The notes under the pieces are model-generated. The model was given only the letters and a program-made list of their open reading frames with translations. It did not search any database and had not been told where the DNA came from. A DNA stretch of 32,000 nt from Sinorhizobium meliloti (GTDB lineage: Bacteria; Pseudomonadota; Alphaproteobacteria; Rhizobiales; Rhizobiaceae), in contig NZ_JAGIOS010000003.1 of assembly GCF_017876815.1 (NCBI RefSeq), forward strand, positions 1,200,001 to 1,232,000, in the 5' to 3' direction. How positions within the stretch are numbered: the first letter of the stretch is position 1; each line of letters opens with the position of its first letter. The position numbers and the translations under genes are program-made. Shown here piece by piece: positions 18,188-25,781 of the stretch.

Positions 18188-18919
18188 TCAGATGGCATAA
18201 AGCTCAATCGGCTTCTCAAAGCCCTTGAGGCGGTATTCTCGGCCCTCGCTTGCCGCCGTTTGGCTCTGCGCGCGCTCGCAAACGGCCCTGGTCACGAGGA
18301 TTCGCCCCGCCTCGGCGGCGGATTGGGCCCGAGCGGCAGTATTCACAACCGTACCGATAGCAGTCAGGTCGCGGTGCGATCGGCCGAACTCTCCGAAGCT
18401 GGCCTCACCGGTGTCGATGCCGATGCCAACCCCGAGCTCACTTCCGTCCAGGCCGGCACCTTCCGCCAAGCGAAACTCACGGCGCAATTGGCATCGGCGC
18501 TGGATCTCCCGCGCCGCGAGCACAGCGCGCTCAGCGTGATCCTGGTGGGGGATCGGAAAGTTGAAGATTGCCATGATCGCGTCCCCGACCGTCTTGTTAA
18601 GAAGGCCGTCGAACTCCCAAATCGCCGCGGCACATTCATCGTAGAAATCATCCAGCAGCGACGAAACAATATCGGCCGAGAGCGATTGCGAAAGCGCCGT
18701 GTAGCCTCGCAGATCTGCAAAAAGGACGGAGACGTCAACAGTGATCTTGCGGGCTTTCATCACGCGCGTGAACATTAGTTCACAGATCGTGCAGGTATTC
18801 GGGTTCATCCGGCTCGGGCGGATGCCAAAGGCGCGGAAGGGAATGGAAGCCGGCCCGCGCAGGGGCACGGGAATACGCATCTGCTCCCAGCATCCCTTGC
18901 AAATCCTGGATTGAGACAT
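18188..18919 (-). CDS. Class III adenylate/guanylate cyclase with N-terminal Cys4 (CxxC...CxxC) module
   Basis: Cyclase core VLFADLRGYT...NKTVGDAIMAIFN...IGIDTGEASFGEFG...TAIGTVVNTAARAQ. N-terminus carries CKGC and CTIC 32 aa apart. Confidence 0.8.
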   Translation of the reverse strand: MSQSRICKGCWEQMRIPVPLRGPASIPFRAFGIRPSRMNPNTCTICELMFTRVMKARKITVDVSVLFADLRGYTALSQSLSADIVSSLLDDFYDECAAAIWEFDGLLNKTVGDAIMAIFNFPIPHQDHAERAVLAAREIQRRCQLRREFRLAEGAGLDGSELGVGIGIDTGEASFGEFGRSHRDLTAIGTVVNTAARAQSAAEAGRILVTRAVCERAQSQTAASEGREYRLKGFEKPIELYAI

Positions 18920-19024
18920 GTTGCCGCCGCCCTGCTTGCGTGACGCAATGCGACTTTCGCATATATCGGCAACAAAATCTCCCGAAAACCCTCGGGTGTC
19001 TGTATTTGAGACCGCGACAGTCCG

Positions 19025-19147
19025 TTAGCCTTCAGACAGTTGTTCGGCTGTGGCCGCTATGGGTGCATTCCCCAAGGAATTATTGACGTACTTGAAAGCA
19101 AGTATGCTGATAATCGAGGCGACTATAACTAAGATGACGAGACGCAT
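19025..19147 (-). CDS. Hypothetical 40-aa single-TM peptide (candidate)
   Basis: ATG...TAA ORF encoding MRLVILVIVASIISILAFKYVNNSLGNAPIAATAEQLSEG. Not in the ORF track (under 60 aa) and has no clear SD. Lies in the AT-rich islet. Confidence 0.3.
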   Translation of the reverse strand: MRLVILVIVASIISILAFKYVNNSLGNAPIAATAEQLSEG

Positions 19148-19341
19148 GAAAATTTACCATGTTCGTTGCACCGAGAAACTCTCTCGGAGACCTCGTTGTT
19201 CCAGCACCTCCGATTCGGTGGGAACGCCAACTGACTACATGAGCAGTAATTCATGGATAAGCCTGACGAAACCGGTGCCTGCCTTTTCGGCGGCAACCGA
19301 TGGCTCTCACCTGTCCGGGCGACCTCTCGAAAAGTCTTTCC

Positions 19342-19521
19342 TCAACGATCCTGTGTTTGCGCGACAGGCAGATAGACTTTCGAGCCGACGTGCTCGCCAC
19401 CAGTCAACGAGTTCCCGACCAGCAGGTAGGCTGATATTCCGAGGACCGACAGCAGCAGAATGCTTACGGGCAGTCCCGTTGAGACGTGATGTTCCGGTTC
19501 CTGATAATTCCATCTAGTCAT
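19342..19521 (-). CDS. Hypothetical 59-aa single-TM protein (candidate)
   Basis: MTRWNYQEPEHHVSTGLPVSILLLSVLGISAYLLVGNSLTGGEHVGSKVYLPVAQTQDR, with GGAG 9 nt upstream of the ATG. An extended -10-like TGGTATAAT sits on the minus strand at 19631-19639. Confidence 0.35.
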   Translation of the reverse strand: MTRWNYQEPEHHVSTGLPVSILLLSVLGISAYLLVGNSLTGGEHVGSKVYLPVAQTQDR

Positions 19522-19801
19522 TCGAACGTACTCCACTCTACACAAAGTGAGAACGAGCCACCGATGCAGCAGTTCCTGCACCGATGGTTGAACCTGGGTA
19601 ACGATGTTCGAGGCGTTGTAACGAGCCGGCATTATACCATGCCGTCGCTGCCGCGGAGGGGTTATTGGCGGGGTATCATTCCGCCATGTTCACCGACCGT
19701 TCCTACCTATTTCAGGCGCGGCTGAGGCTGCAGCGGGGATGAGGGAAAGTGCGTGCGGTTTCAGGTCGCTGGAGATGCGGACTCACTCCGCCACGGTCCG
19801 C

Positions 19802-19924
19802 TTACCAGAACACGTCGTAAAGGGTAATAAAGACAATCATTCCAATGCAGACTGCTGGCGTCGACCTGATCGCGAAGTCGACTGGATTGAATTGGTATCC
19901 GAAGCTTTCAACATAAGATTTCAT
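19802..19924 (-). CDS. Hypothetical 40-aa C-terminally anchored peptide (candidate)
   Basis: MKSYVESFGYQFNPVDFAIRSTPAVCIGMIVFITLYDVFW, preceded by GGGAGGA 10 nt upstream of the ATG. A hairpin GCGGAC...GTCCGC lies just downstream. Confidence 0.4.
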   Translation of the reverse strand: MKSYVESFGYQFNPVDFAIRSTPAVCIGMIVFITLYDVFW

Positions 19925-20197
19925 GACTTTTGTTTCCTCCCTGTGAGTTGTCTGGGACCCAGAACGGTCAGAGCACTTCCAGGAAAAGTGTCGTAACGGT
20001 ATTCCGTCCGGACCGCTCGCTTCCTTCTGAAGCGACCTTCGCAACATTCGATCACGACCCGCGGAGCTTGTTTGACTCCACGGCAGCACGAATAAGTGCC
20101 GCCATACCTTAGTACTTCAGCAGCAGAGAAGGTTTGCGCCTTTGAGGAGTAGATCGATTATCGGAGAGTTGATGGTAGGACGTTAGAGCCACGCCCG

Positions 20198-20534
20198 TCA
20201 ATGAGTACGGTTAATCGTTGGGGCATAAATATGGCGAAACCAAGATTTATCAAGGTATTCCTGATGAGAAGCCAGAAAATCAACGCGAATTTTTTCAACG
20301 TCTCCGGATTTTACTAGAGTGACGACTTCCCATATTCTTGGTATTTTTCTCACGGATGCCGATAAAGTTTCCTGCTTGGTCATTCAGGATTTTATTTTTA
20401 CTTTGCAGCGGCAGACCGCCGAAAACGCTCTCGGCCACGAGCTTCGCCTCGCGCATGCTGCATGGCTGGGTTGCGAATTCCGCTCTACGATCGGAGCGAG
20501 ACTGTTGTATAGTCAATTCATCGAAGCGATGCAC
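20198..20534 (-). pseudogene. Frameshifted ORF relic of unknown family (weak BrnT/DUF497-like pattern)
   Basis: Two overlapping minus-strand ORFs (20295..20534 and 20198..20383) join at an A5 run (plus-strand T5 at 20344-20348). The joined product is ...REAKLVAESVFGGLPLQSKNKILNDQAGNFIGIREK/IPRIWEVVTLVKSGDVEKIRVDFLASHQEYLDK.... About 38% GC. The family assignment rests only on pattern recollection. Confidence 0.25.
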
Positions 20535-20680
20535 CTCCTCCCGCAGAGCTTCGATATGCGAGCGACCTTTCCTCCTCCCGAGTTCGCTTGCGGGATCAGC
20601 GCTACTCCTCCTCCCGGAATGCTGATCGGTTCTTTTGGAAAAGCCTGCCGCACCTCCTCCCGCGGTAGGCTTTTTCGTTT
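20518..20680 (+). ncRNA. alpha-r14 / 'cuckoo' / NfeR1-like trans-acting sRNA with four CCUCCUCCC anti-SD hairpin loops
   Basis: Exact 10-mer CCTCCTCCCG at 20534, 20571, 20607 and 20653, each in a hairpin loop. Stems: 20521-27/20548-54 (7 bp); 20558-65/20584-91 (8 bp, one GU); 20594-600/20621-27 (7 bp); 20639-50/20663-74 (12 bp, one GU). The last is followed by TTTTTCGTTT, giving an intrinsic terminator. A -10-like TATAGT lies at 20508-20513. Confidence 0.7.
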
Positions 20681-20701: not shown

Positions 20702-21838
20702 TCACAGCGCCAGGGCGAGCTGCGGCTCGCTCCGATCGTCCACCGTATCGAGAGACGAGAGCGTGACCCCGAGCAACCGAATGCCTTTTGGGACTGGAAA
20801 GATTGGTGACAGGAGCAGCTCCGCGATTTCGCGCATTTCTGCGACGCTCGCTATCGGCGCGACGATGGTCTTGCTTCTGGTGATCTGCGTGAAATCTGCC
20901 CACTTCACCTTCAGTGTCATGGTCTTGCCGCGAATGCCGCTGGCTTCACAATAGTGCCAGACCTTGTCGATCAGAGGCTTGAGGCCCGCGCGGGCCGTTT
21001 CAAGATCATGAACATCCTCCCGAAACGTATCCTCGGCGCCGATCGATTTTCGGATGCGGTCGGGCTTGACCTCACGCTCGTCAATGCCGCGGGCGATCCA
21101 GTAGAAATACGGCCCCGACTTGCCGAAATGCTGCTGAAGGAAGGCGAGATCACGGGATTTGAGATCGGCGCCGGTTTCGATCCCAAGCCTTTTCATCTTC
21201 TCGGCCGTTGCCGGTCCGACGCCGTGAAACTTTTTGACAGGAAGCGCCTGCACGAATTCTGGACCGCGCTTCGGCGTGATGACGAACAACCCATCGGGCT
21301 TGCGCTGATCCGACGCCATCTTCGCAAGGAACTTGTTGTAGGAGACGCCGGCGGATGCCGTGAGGTGCGTCTCGGCCTTGATCCTGGTGCGAATCTCTTC
21401 GGCGATCTCGGTTGCGAGCCTCAGTCCCTTCAAGTTCTCGGTGACGTCGAGGTAGGCCTCGTCCAGCGACAATGGTTCGATCAACGGCGTGTATTCGGCG
21501 AAGATCGCCTGGATTTGCCGCGAGACGGCCCGGTAGACGTCGAAGCGGTGCGGAACGAAGATCAGGTCCGGACATTTGCGCTTGGCCGTCACCGAGGGCA
21601 TAGCCGAGTGAACGCCGAACTTGCGCGCCTCGTAGCTTGCGGCCGCCACCACCCCGCGCGCCTCCGGATAACCGACTGCGACCGGTTTGCCTCGAAGCTC
21701 CGGATTGTCGCGCTGCTCAACCGAAGCATAAAATGCGTCCATGTCGATATGGATGATTTTGCGAACGCGGCCGCCGGGGGTGGGGGCAAGTGCCCCACCG
21801 CTCCTGTCACCTTCCTCTGGCTCTCCGCCCACCGGCAT
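20702..21838 (-). CDS. dinB: DNA polymerase IV (Y-family)
   Basis: IIHIDMDAFYASVEQRDNPELRGKPVAV, SLDEAYLDVT and GVSYNKFLAKMASD are all DinB hallmarks. 378 aa. Confidence 0.92.
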   Translation of the reverse strand: MPVGGEPEEGDRSGGALAPTPGGRVRKIIHIDMDAFYASVEQRDNPELRGKPVAVGYPEARGVVAAASYEARKFGVHSAMPSVTAKRKCPDLIFVPHRFDVYRAVSRQIQAIFAEYTPLIEPLSLDEAYLDVTENLKGLRLATEIAEEIRTRIKAETHLTASAGVSYNKFLAKMASDQRKPDGLFVITPKRGPEFVQALPVKKFHGVGPATAEKMKRLGIETGADLKSRDLAFLQQHFGKSGPYFYWIARGIDEREVKPDRIRKSIGAEDTFREDVHDLETARAGLKPLIDKVWHYCEASGIRGKTMTLKVKWADFTQITRSKTIVAPIASVAEMREIAELLLSPIFPVPKGIRLLGVTLSSLDTVDDRSEPQLALAL

Positions 21839-24198: not shown

Positions 24199-25149
24199 TC
24201 ATCCCTTCGCTTCGACAAGAACCGCGCGCAGCGCGCGTTCGACAAGCGTGAGCTTGAAGGCGTTCTGTTCCGTCGGGCGGGCACCGGCAAGAAGCATTGC
24301 GGCCACCGCCTTTGCTCCGTTCGCCAGCTCCTTTTCGGCCGCCTCGTCACGCCATGGTTTCGGCGCGATACCGCCAACGGCGACGCGGCCAGTCCCATCC
24401 GGCTGCACGACGGCGCCGACGGAGACGAGCGCAAAGGCGTAGGAGGCCCGGTCACGAACTTTGCGATAGATCTGCTTGCCGCCAGCCGGCTTCGGCAGGA
24501 CGACCGCGGTGATCAACTCGCCTCGCTCAAGGACATGTTCGATATGCGGCGTGTCACCGGGCAGGCGATGAAGATCTCCCATCGGGATGCTGCGCGTCGT
24601 GCCGTCGGCTCGCACGGTCTCCACGACGGCGTCGAGGGCGCGCATGGCGACCGCCATGTCGCTCGGGTGGCTGGCAATGCAGGCATCGCTGACGCCAACC
24701 ACCGCAAGCTGGCGGCTGAAGCCGGCGAGAGCCGAACAGCCGCTGCCCGGTTGCCTCTTATTGCACGGCTGGTTGGTATCGTAGAAATACGGACAGCGGG
24801 TGCGTTGAAGCAGATTGCCCGCGGTCGTCGCCCTGTTGCGCAACTGTCCCGATGCCCCCGCGAGCAGGGCGCGCGACAGAAGAGCGTAATCACGGCGGAC
24901 CCGTTCGTCGGCGGCAAGATCCGTATTGCGGACCAGGGCGCCGATACGCAGACCCCCTTCCCGCGTAGCTTCGATCCTGTCCAGACCCAGTCCGTTGACA
25001 TCTACGAGATGTGTCGGCGTCTCGATCTCCAGCTTCATCAGATCCAGGAGATTGGTGCCGCCGGCGATGAATTTCGCGCCATCTGTGGCGGCCGCGGCCC
25101 GCGCCGCCGCTTCGATCGACGAGACGCGCTCGTAACTGAAAGCTTTCAT
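24199..25149 (-). CDS. Xanthine dehydrogenase-family FAD-binding subunit (PaoB/YagS-like)
   Basis: [43 protein letters not shown] (CO-dehydrogenase flavoprotein fold). GGGAGGAAGG RBS. ATGA overlap with the FeS-subunit stop at 25146-25149. Confidence 0.88.
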
Positions 25150-25781
25150 GCCTTCCTCCCAGCGACTTCTGTGATGGCTTCGACGATGTTCGAATAGGCG
25201 CCGCAACGACAGATATTGCCGCTCATGCGCTCGCGGATCTCGGCGGGCGTGATTTCGGCCGGCGCCGTGAGATCCACGGTCACATGGCTTGGAATATTGG
25301 CCTTGATTTCATTGAGCATTGCAACGGAGGAACAGATCTGGCCGGGCGTGCAGTAGCCACACTGGAACCCGTCGTGTTTGACAAAGGCGGCCTGCATCGG
25401 ATGGAGGTTCTCCGGCTGCCCCAAGCCTTCGAGCGTGGTGATGCTGTCGCCCTCGTGCATGATGGCGAGCGTCAGGCACGCGTTGACGCGGCGGCCTTCA
25501 ATGAGAACCGTGCACGCTCCGCACTGACCGTGGTCGCACCCCTTCTTGGTACCCGTCAAATGCAGATGCTCGCGCAGCGCGTCGAGAAGCGTCGTTCGGT
25601 TATCGAGCTGAAGCTCCCGGCGTTCGTCGTTCACCGTGAATGTGACCTTCGTGCTCTGGGGTGCGGTGGAGGCATTGGTCTGCGCGTGACCGAGCGAGTG
25701 TGCGCTCACCACTGTCACGGTAGCGGCCGAGGCGGCGAGCAGGTCGCGCCGCGAGATTTCAAGTGCGCCAGGACTTTGCAT
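25146..25781 (-). CDS. (2Fe-2S)-binding subunit with twin-arginine signal (PaoA/YagT-like)
   Basis: [33 protein letters not shown] signal, then [11 protein letters not shown] and CGYCTPGQ / CRCGAY cluster motifs. The ATG at 25781 has GGAG 6 nt upstream; an alternative ATG lies at 25793. Confidence 0.88.

Follow-up and report, generated by a model that had tools for sequence, protein, structure and literature searches.

The window analysed here, a stretch of 32,000 nucleotides, belongs to the Sinorhizobium meliloti megaplasmid pSymA and contains, next to a convergent dinB gene, a small RNA (sRNA) gene with four hairpins. The 2.4 kb around the sRNA are 100% identical to SM11 pSmeSM11c and to the RU11/001 megaplasmid, and the pSymA of strain 1021 differs from the window by 2 substitutions and 0 indels across 281 aligned nucleotides. 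The alignment with strain 1021 allowed published coordinates to be converted (window position = 1348853 minus pSymA coordinate). The features of the locus are as follows; note that the transcript ends come from RNA-seq data of strain 1021/2011, another strain than that of the window.

20450-20475, plus strand: conserved upstream box CGCG-CATGCT-GCAT-GGCTG-GGT-TGCG, about -69 to -44 (promoter alignment A4)
20508-20513, plus strand: putative -10 element TATAGT (family consensus TATNNT), 6-11 nt upstream of the published 5' end
20519-20678, plus strand: sRNA transcript SmelA099 (also A6/SmrA6, Smr14A2 and SMa6570), 160 nt; published ends mapped via the strain 1021 alignment
20520-20555, plus strand: hairpin 1, an 8-bp stem plus a 3-bp inner helix, with CCUCCUCCC at 20534-20542; outside the Rfam ar14 match
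20558-20591, plus strand: hairpin 2, from the fold, loop motif at 20571-20579
20594-20627, plus strand: hairpin 3, loop motif at 20607-20615 within CUCCUCCUCCC, the first two bases of the motif mostly paired in the ensemble
20637-20676 (element to 20680), plus strand: hairpin 4, the Rho-independent terminator, loop motif at 20653-20661, T-tract at 20671-20675
20702-21838, minus strand: dinB (DNA polymerase IV), convergent and given as context only; Pfam IMS, IMS_C and IMS_HHH, and dinB in the strain ml46 annotation

Judged by its sequence, the sRNA gene at 20519-20678 (plus strand) is the already catalogued SmelA099, and we present it as a re-discovery with nothing new in the gene itself. SmelA099, a trans-encoded sRNA of 160 nt that corresponds to the earlier prediction A6, was mapped to positions 1328175-1328334 of the minus strand of pSymA(1021) (PMC2873474). 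The locus was predicted as A6 in 2007 (del Val), sequenced as SmelA099 in 2010 (Schluter) and probed in 2012 (del Val) under the name Smr14A2 (PMC3346310); the Northern probe of that study, GAGGAAAGGTCGCTCGCATATCGAA, is the reverse complement of window positions 20550-20574. A 2020 review enters it as SmelA099/smrA6, which the annotation of strain 2011 tags SMa6570 (PMC7143759). An earlier, sequence-only reading of the same DNA had placed an sRNA at 20518-20680, nearly the interval to which the published ends map (20519-20678), and had expected a plus-strand transcript, of which a 160-nt equivalent is on record at this locus in strain 1021/2011 (PMC2873474). It had also supposed that annotation had missed the locus, which is incorrect for strain 2011, where SMa6570 is its tag (PMC7143759). 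The reading of raw sequence did recover a real sRNA gene that is unlisted in the public plasmid annotations examined. A coding interpretation of the region was rejected: the overlapping open reading frames at 20338-20625 (plus strand), 20513-20653 (minus strand) and 20198-20383 (minus strand) have no Pfam match.

Exactly four copies of the 10-mer CCTCCTCCCG are present in the 32 kb of the window, at positions 20534, 20571, 20607 and 20653, always on the plus strand, as the sequence-only reading had reported. Dinucleotide-preserving shuffles contained 0.18 copies on average and 2 at most, and four copies were reached in 0 of 100. Copies 1 and 4 share the 14-mer gcacctcctcccgc (20531-20544 and 20650-20663), again in agreement with that reading. 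The minimum-energy fold of 20505-20680 consists of four consecutive hairpins of 36, 34, 34 and 40 nt (-67.3 kcal/mol, z = -5.2, matched by 0 of 200 shuffles). Their outer stems measure 8, 8, 8 and 15 bp, with an extra 3-bp inner helix in each of hairpins 1-3; the lengths of 7, 8, 7 and 12 bp given earlier are close enough to these. CCUCCUCCC, present in all four loops, is the complement of a strong Shine-Dalgarno sequence. The mean unpaired probabilities of the loop 9-mers in the ensemble are 1.00, 0.96, 0.77 and 1.00 for hairpins 1 to 4, so that the earlier description of one motif copy per hairpin loop is borne out by both the fold and the unpaired probabilities (0.77-1.00); as modelled, the third loop motif is partly sequestered.

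Hairpin 4 has a GC-rich core of 9 bp, extended by pairs between an A-tract and a U-tract and followed by TTTTTCGTTT, as expected of the intrinsic terminator that had been proposed for the last hairpin. A simple terminator scan did not list the sRNA terminator, because its 10-nt loop exceeds the limit of 3-8 nt set in the tool. On the minus strand, the A-tract on the 5' side of the hairpin yields UUUU after the terminator hairpin, and 23 nt separate the sRNA 3' end from the dinB stop codon (20702-20704). The modelled terminator may thus be bidirectional and also serve the convergent dinB.

BLAST searches of plasmids returned matches in 484 records, many of which covered just query positions ~78-241, that is, the transcript; the locus is >99% conserved in 33 plasmid records. 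Sixteen plasmid homologues from Sinorhizobium, Ensifer, Rhizobium, Agrobacterium, Neorhizobium and Peteryoungia were studied further, and all 16, folded singly, adopt a four-hairpin structure in which each loop carries the motif. RNAalifold applied to a plain MAFFT alignment missed hairpin 2, the stems being misaligned, and was replaced by these single folds and by a covariance-model alignment. For the latter, a four-hairpin covariance model (R1) was built and the 16 homologues were re-aligned with it (alignment A5). In this alignment, 94.4% of the cells are paired, compared with 35-48% when the partners are slid by 1-3 columns, and 14 pairs show compensatory double changes; the observed values were reached in 0 of 500 shuffles. 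The double changes affect 1 of 11 pairs in hairpin 1, 8 of 8 in hairpin 2, 2 of 8 in hairpin 3 and 3 of 14 in hairpin 4. Hairpin 1 is nearly invariant in sequence among the 16 plasmid homologues, its stem included.

A scan of species, one genome each, with the hairpin-1 pattern matched at least 120 stretches, and R1 finds about 80 full-length four-hairpin RNAs (136-190 bits) in the first 100 of these loci. A larger covariance-model alignment of 91 sequences (alignment A6) contains 28 covarying pairs, with 8/8 in hairpin 2, 8/8 in hairpin 3 and 10/14 in hairpin 4; its loci were picked through hairpin 1, so it is uninformative on the conservation of that hairpin. Both alignments have a bias towards the structure, having been fitted to the model, and the single-sequence folds agree with them independently. 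Thus, hairpins 2-4 are supported by covariation and hairpin 1 by sequence invariance instead. S. meliloti and S. medicae also differ in the hairpin-2 stem by paired substitutions that preserve pairing, such as C-G to U-A. Conservation in relatives, on which the sequence-only reading had staked its proposal, therefore extends to the four motifs and to compensatory changes in the stems. In eight Ensifer and Sinorhizobium species, the RNA has three hairpins: 1, 3 and 4 are kept and hairpin 2 is absent, which fits the published view of modular hairpin gain and loss. The window has four intact loops; strain KH46 carries a decayed third motif, CCTCCTACC.

The Rfam ar14 model (RF02344) aligns in full, over model positions 1-123, with 20552-20677 (plus strand), scoring 87 bits (E = 1.2e-14) against a gathering score of 58.8 bits, and the earlier assignment to the ar14/cuckoo family, as a paralogue of NfeR1, stands. 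RF02344 describes three hairpins and covers hairpins 2-4 only. It "assumes exactly 3 hairpins", which leads to mis-annotation of four-hairpin members (PMC4615179), and pipelines that rely on it would set the 5' end of this RNA about 33 nt too far downstream. In 2011, Reinkensmeier et al. made separate models for the three-hairpin RNAs (RFMSmelA075) and the four-hairpin RNAs (RFMSmelA099), the latter named after this very locus (PMC3927594). Reinkensmeier and Giegerich merged them in 2015 into the cuckoo family, with 2-4 hairpins and 66 four-hairpin (HP4) members (PMC4615179). The literature assigns four hairpins to A6 and to SmelA099 (PMC4615179, PMC3927594), and according to the 2015 table each S. 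meliloti strain has exactly one HP4 RNA, with no conserved neighbourhood assigned to any of these RNAs (PMC4615179).

Cuckoo RNAs are built of hairpins of 24-50 nt, two to four in a row, with loops of 9-27 nt that leave CCUCCUCCC unpaired (PMC4615179), and the window RNA has both these hairpin sizes and this loop motif. It also combines a conserved loop motif with variable stems that keep their pairing, hairpin 1 alone being invariant and not covarying. With four motif hairpins and orthology to SmelA099, it falls into HP4/RFMSmelA099, of which the window locus is the type member. The four-loop copy is accordingly no unrecognised expanded variant, as the sequence-only reading had it, but a representative of a described class (PMC3927594, PMC4615179). 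R1 scores 174.8 bits on 20517-20680, partly by construction since the window was in its seed, and 70.6 and 85.1 bits on the three-hairpin paralogues SmelA075 and Smr14B, respectively. The Rfam model of CcsR1 (RF02791) scores 25.3 bits on the window RNA, below its gathering score of 65.3 bits.

Upstream of the transcript, the conserved box follows the family consensus YGCR-N6-GCATRGCTG(CAC)TGCR at about -70 to -44. In an anchored comparison of 120 of the loci (at least 120 matched), GCATRGCTG was found at a fixed distance in 91 and the exact TGCA-N6-GCAT, at -70 to -72, in 33; many Rhizobium and Agrobacterium loci carry the perfect palindrome GCTGCA-C-TGCAGC within the box. TGCA-N6-GCAT is the sequence that LsrB binds at -72 to -57 of the NfeR1 promoter, where it is indispensable for transcription (Garcia-Tomsig et al. 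2023, PMC10746234). The corresponding part of the window, CGCG-CATGCT-GCAT at -69 to -56 (20450-20463), has an intact right half, and its left half reads CGCG, not TGCA. The upstream box thus resembles the LsrB site of NfeR1 in sequence and position, and LsrB might bind here too. This family-wide conservation of a box resembling the LsrB site of the NfeR1 promoter may be new.

The T-A-T of the putative -10 element forms invariant columns in promoter alignment A4, and gTAT..T is kept in 91 loci. A good -35 element at 17-nt spacing is absent (CTACGA is found there), which explains why a consensus promoter scan did not call the sRNA promoter and which fits an activator-dependent promoter. From these elements, we infer a promoter that is probably activator-dependent and possibly LsrB-dependent, with a weaker left half-site; the review table gives no predicted sigma or promoter motif for SmelA099 (PMC7143759). 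A sigma-54 reading of TGGCTGGGTTGCG (20464-20476) was rejected, its GG/GC spacing being 9 and not 12 nt and its distance from the mapped 5' end 45-55 nt. The alphaproteobacterial LexA box (GTTC-N7-GTTC), searched with up to 1 mismatch, gave 21 matches in the window compared with 25 expected, none of them at the sRNA or dinB promoter; the sole perfect match (19688-19702) is what chance gives.

The 160-nt SmelA099 transcript was recovered by RNA-seq from strain 2011/1021 (PMC2873474), and the review's column for expression in nodules lists zones ZII/IZ/ZIII (PMC7143759). On Northern blots of strain 1021, the Smr14A2 probe gave no signal in logarithmic or stationary TY cultures (PMC3346310), which indicates low expression in free-living cells; according to the review, this method gives reliable detection for just one copy out of six (PMC7143759). 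An activator-dependent promoter with a weak left half-site, as read from the sequence, would fit the negative Northern in rich medium.

The neighbourhoods of the relatives, drawn from the at least 120 matched loci, were annotated by tblastn with proteins from annotated plasmids. Among the 94 species loci with enough downstream sequence, the gene convergent on the sRNA is dinB in 16 and a gene for an SOS response-associated peptidase (SRAP) in 5; in the remaining 73 it is neither. In several loci with enough flank, ligD follows the SRAP gene. Upstream, a DUF1127 gene lies about 190 nt away in 46 of the 98 loci with enough sequence on that side, often preceded by a gene for an RNase T-type 3'-5' exonuclease, and a 108-aa gene without a Pfam match is found in 5 of the 98. 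The recurring order is exonuclease, DUF1127, sRNA and convergent dinB and SRAP, of which S. meliloti and S. medicae retain the dinB side alone. Searches by tblastn with two DUF1127 proteins gave no match in the window, which thus has no adjacent gene of the CcsR/CIN1 type, and no remnants of the upstream DUF1127, exonuclease or 108-aa genes were found in the window by the same method.

The convergence of dinB or SRAP genes on the sRNA in ~22% of the relatives may be new; the paper that defined the cuckoo family does not mention polymerase, repair or damage genes (PMC4615179). The loci share descent, so the dinB/SRAP count is a lead and not a statistical test. It raises the idea that the four-hairpin subfamily is functionally tied to DNA-damage tolerance, the sRNA being co-regulated with these genes, regulating them or sharing a terminator with them, with S. 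meliloti keeping the dinB half of an ancestral module; we consider such a tie unlikely. As a smaller version of this idea, SmelA099 may be a second LsrB-controlled cuckoo sRNA, active under conditions that have not been sampled.

As to how the RNA would work, transcription is predicted to begin about 6 nt past TATAGT, under the upstream box resembling the LsrB site, and the RNA would start straight with hairpin 1 and stop at the terminator hairpin. By analogy with NfeR1, the four CCUCCUCCC loops are most likely redundant seed regions, which would pair with the ribosome-binding sites of many mRNAs and occasionally with sites in coding regions; this pairing would block translation initiation and promote mRNA decay. 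For NfeR1, genetic evidence has established ribosome-binding sites, such as the one of ntrB, and some sites within coding regions (gdhA) as pairing partners of the CCUCCUCCC loops; it has also shown that this pairing represses translation and destabilises the mRNA, and that the motifs are redundant, regulation being abolished only when all three loops are mutated (PMC10746234, bioRxiv 10.1101/2025.11.14.688489). SmelA099 exposes this motif in four accessible loops, and the best-supported mechanism, carried over from the paralogue, is hence repression in which the loops would pair with ribosome-binding sites. The sites relevant to loop pairing would be ribosome-binding sites of the GGGAGGAGG type, and in the window the start region of one gene, at 24199-25149 (minus strand), has a match, which reads GGGAGGAAGG. 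An RNAduplex prediction of targets, with the whole sRNA against 13 start regions of the window, was discarded, as it ignored intramolecular structure and returned long, unrealistic duplexes.

Taken as a whole, the locus very probably encodes SmelA099, a 160-nt trans-acting cuckoo sRNA of the HP4 class, whose loops would pair with mRNAs as those of NfeR1 do; no target, phenotype or regulator of SmelA099 has been reported. [quoted passage not shown] A rival possibility is that SmelA099 is a little-used, decaying paralogue, barely transcribed in S. meliloti and with no regulatory role of its own, while NfeR1 does the work. The Smr14A2 Northern, negative in TY where NfeR1 is readily seen (PMC3346310), points in this direction, as do the reliable Northern detection of one copy alone out of six (PMC7143759), the degenerate left half-site of the upstream box, the missing DUF1127 gene, present before 46/98 relatives, and the decay of the third motif to CCTCCTACC in KH46. 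However, RNA-seq did find the 160-nt transcript, and the review lists nodule zones ZII/IZ/ZIII for it. The paired substitutions that maintain hairpin 2 between S. meliloti and S. medicae, the intact state of all loops in the window and the >99% conservation in 33 plasmid records also speak against this possibility, which we regard as unlikely. Less probable still is a role mainly in binding or titrating a protein, be it of the DUF1127/CcaF1 type, Hfq or ribosomal components that recognise a 16S-like CCUCC. Hairpin 1 is near-invariant across genera, stem included, beyond what base pairing requires, a DUF1127 gene lies ~190 nt upstream in 46/98 relatives, and CcaF1 binds and matures the related CcsR RNAs in Rhodobacter (PMC8034643). 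Yet the invariance of hairpin 1 in the large set is partly produced by the selection of the loci, the window sRNA has no DUF1127 gene beside it, and the loops of NfeR1 are regulatory elements that act at mRNA ribosome-binding sites.

Two further explanations concern the extent and the nature of the element, and both seem to us extremely improbable. According to one, the RNA would be the three-hairpin stretch 20552-20677 only, where the Rfam ar14 match begins and spans the whole 123-position model, and the first motif would be an element acting at the DNA level or near the promoter. The Rfam model is, however, fixed at three hairpins and mis-annotates four-hairpin members (PMC4615179), whereas the published 5' end maps to 20519, a TATNNT element lies upstream of hairpin 1 and no promoter-like element is seen between hairpins 1 and 2. 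The four-hairpin model R1, at 174.8 bits, includes hairpin 1, which is present in ~80 relatives among the first 100 of at least 120 loci. According to the other, the element would be chiefly a structured intergenic spacer, serving the convergent dinB as a bidirectional terminator and lacking any function in trans. This would account for the dinB stop codon 23 nt from the sRNA 3' end, for the UUUU that follows the last hairpin on the minus strand and for the convergence of dinB or SRAP in 21/94 relatives. It would leave unexplained why a terminator, for which one hairpin suffices, has four identical loops, why 73/94 relatives have a downstream gene other than dinB or SRAP and why the element has its own conserved promoter.

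The SmelA099 reading can be set against the known systems closest to it. The CcsR1-4 RNAs (RSs0680a-d, RF02791) of Rhodobacter sphaeroides have the same loop motif and modular hairpins as the window RNA, and they adjoin a DUF1127 gene, as do many relatives of the window RNA, which itself has no such neighbour. Unlike it, they consist of two hairpins, are processed from the ccaF1 3' UTR and are under RpoHI/HII control. According to published descriptions, the chromosomal paralogue NfeR1 (Smr14C2, SmelC397) has the same loop motif, Rfam family and type of terminator hairpin, and forms three hairpins, the number given in the sequence-only reading, in 123 nt; SmelA099 is longer by one module, and its 5' hairpin is almost without variation. 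Their promoters carry similarly placed boxes (TGCA-N6-GCAT at -72 to -57 in NfeR1, CGCG-N6-GCAT at -69 to -56 in SmelA099). NfeR1 is highly expressed under nitrogen stress, under salt and in nodules, whereas SmelA099 is Northern-negative in TY, and the regulators of NfeR1 (LsrB and NtrC) and its targets (ntrB, gdhA and ABC transporter mRNAs) have no reported counterparts for SmelA099.

Compared with SmelA099 of strains 1021/2011, the window RNA has the flanking dinB, the four hairpins and the terminator in common, and it differs from strain 1021 at two positions: 20519, the mapped 5' end, is C in the window and A in 1021, and 20667 is T in the window and C in 1021, so that a G-C pair in the terminator stem becomes G-U. 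With the HP4 class as a whole, it shares four adjacent hairpins of 34-40 nt with CCUCCUCCC in loops of ~10-18 nt, variable stems with compensatory changes, a terminator as the last hairpin and a plasmid-borne location in Rhizobiaceae, and it differs from the class in nothing structural.

In eight Ensifer and Sinorhizobium species, the relatives of the four-hairpin sRNA SmelA099 are three-hairpin versions of about 122 nt, in which SmelA099-type hairpins 1, 3 and 4 are present and hairpin 2 is missing, leaving a 38-nt gap against the four-hairpin covariance model. These versions represent a clean case of a single internal module lost or gained. In two Ensifer genomes, weaker matches to the model, probably further cuckoo RNAs grouped close by, lie a few kilobases from the main match (L-numbers denote stretches of related loci).

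L029 134-255 and L063 7150-7271: three-hairpin versions
L026, L040, L051, L069, L092 and L102: further three-hairpin versions
L029 5607-5758, minus strand: weaker match to the four-hairpin model, 45 bits
L063 2584-2735, plus strand: weaker match to the four-hairpin model, 38 bits

Differences were also found between strains. Compared with strain 1021, the sRNA locus carries two SNPs, namely, C instead of A at 20519, coinciding exactly with the mapped transcription start, and T instead of C at 20667, which converts a G-C pair of the terminator stem to G-U. In strain KH46 (L017), loop motif 3 has decayed to CCTCCTACC.

Among the species loci in the matches listed, DNA-damage genes recurrently stand tail-to-tail with four-hairpin sRNA relatives (for example, in L010, L011, L014, L016, L019, L020, L037, L039, L090 and L095). 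Of the 94 species loci with sufficient 3' flank, 16 have dinB directly 3' of the sRNA and 5 have a gene for an SRAP peptidase, with SRAP followed by ligD in several loci; the 5' side often carries genes for an RNase T-type 3'-5' exonuclease and a DUF1127 protein. S. meliloti retains dinB alone of this neighbourhood, which is not mentioned in the cuckoo-family paper (PMC4615179).

20637-21838: sRNA terminator hairpin and dinB, tail-to-tail

No convincing gene was found in the ~1.6 kb 5' of the sRNA (18920-20500), where the G+C content is 0.43-0.57 versus ~0.6 in the flanks. Annotations of other strains place only two short hypothetical ORFs in this stretch, and a Pfam search with the ORF at 20198-20383 returned no match. 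The single perfect GTTC-N7-GTTC site in the window, resembling a LexA box (19688-19702), is a chance expectation. The last gene before the gene-poor stretch encodes a cyclase domain.

18188-18919, minus strand: 243-aa ORF whose catalytic domain is that of a class III adenylate/guanylate cyclase (Pfam PF00211, E = 4.5e-19)

Elsewhere in the window, the only near-copy of the loop motif is CTTCCTCCC (25152-25160, plus strand), which is complementary to a very strong Shine-Dalgarno sequence. The gene that it serves, annotated as a xanthine dehydrogenase family subunit M in a paoABC-like operon, is a possible local target, with a 7-nt match between this site and the sRNA loops.

25152-25160: ribosome-binding site GGGAGGAAGG of the minus-strand gene 24199-25149

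Upstream of the sRNA lies a conserved box, which 91 of the 120 related loci among the matches listed also carry at the same position.

20450-20475, ~-70 to -44 of the sRNA: conserved box YGCR-N6-GCATRGCTG(CAC)TGCR

In many Rhizobium and Agrobacterium loci, the box contains a perfect palindrome, GCTGCA-C-TGCAGC, and the identical palindrome lies just 5' of the pSymB paralogue Smr14B (L139, ~300-320). By sequence, the left part of the box consensus corresponds to the published site of the activator LsrB in the promoter of NfeR1, the three-hairpin chromosomal paralogue, with a possible second half-site in the right part.
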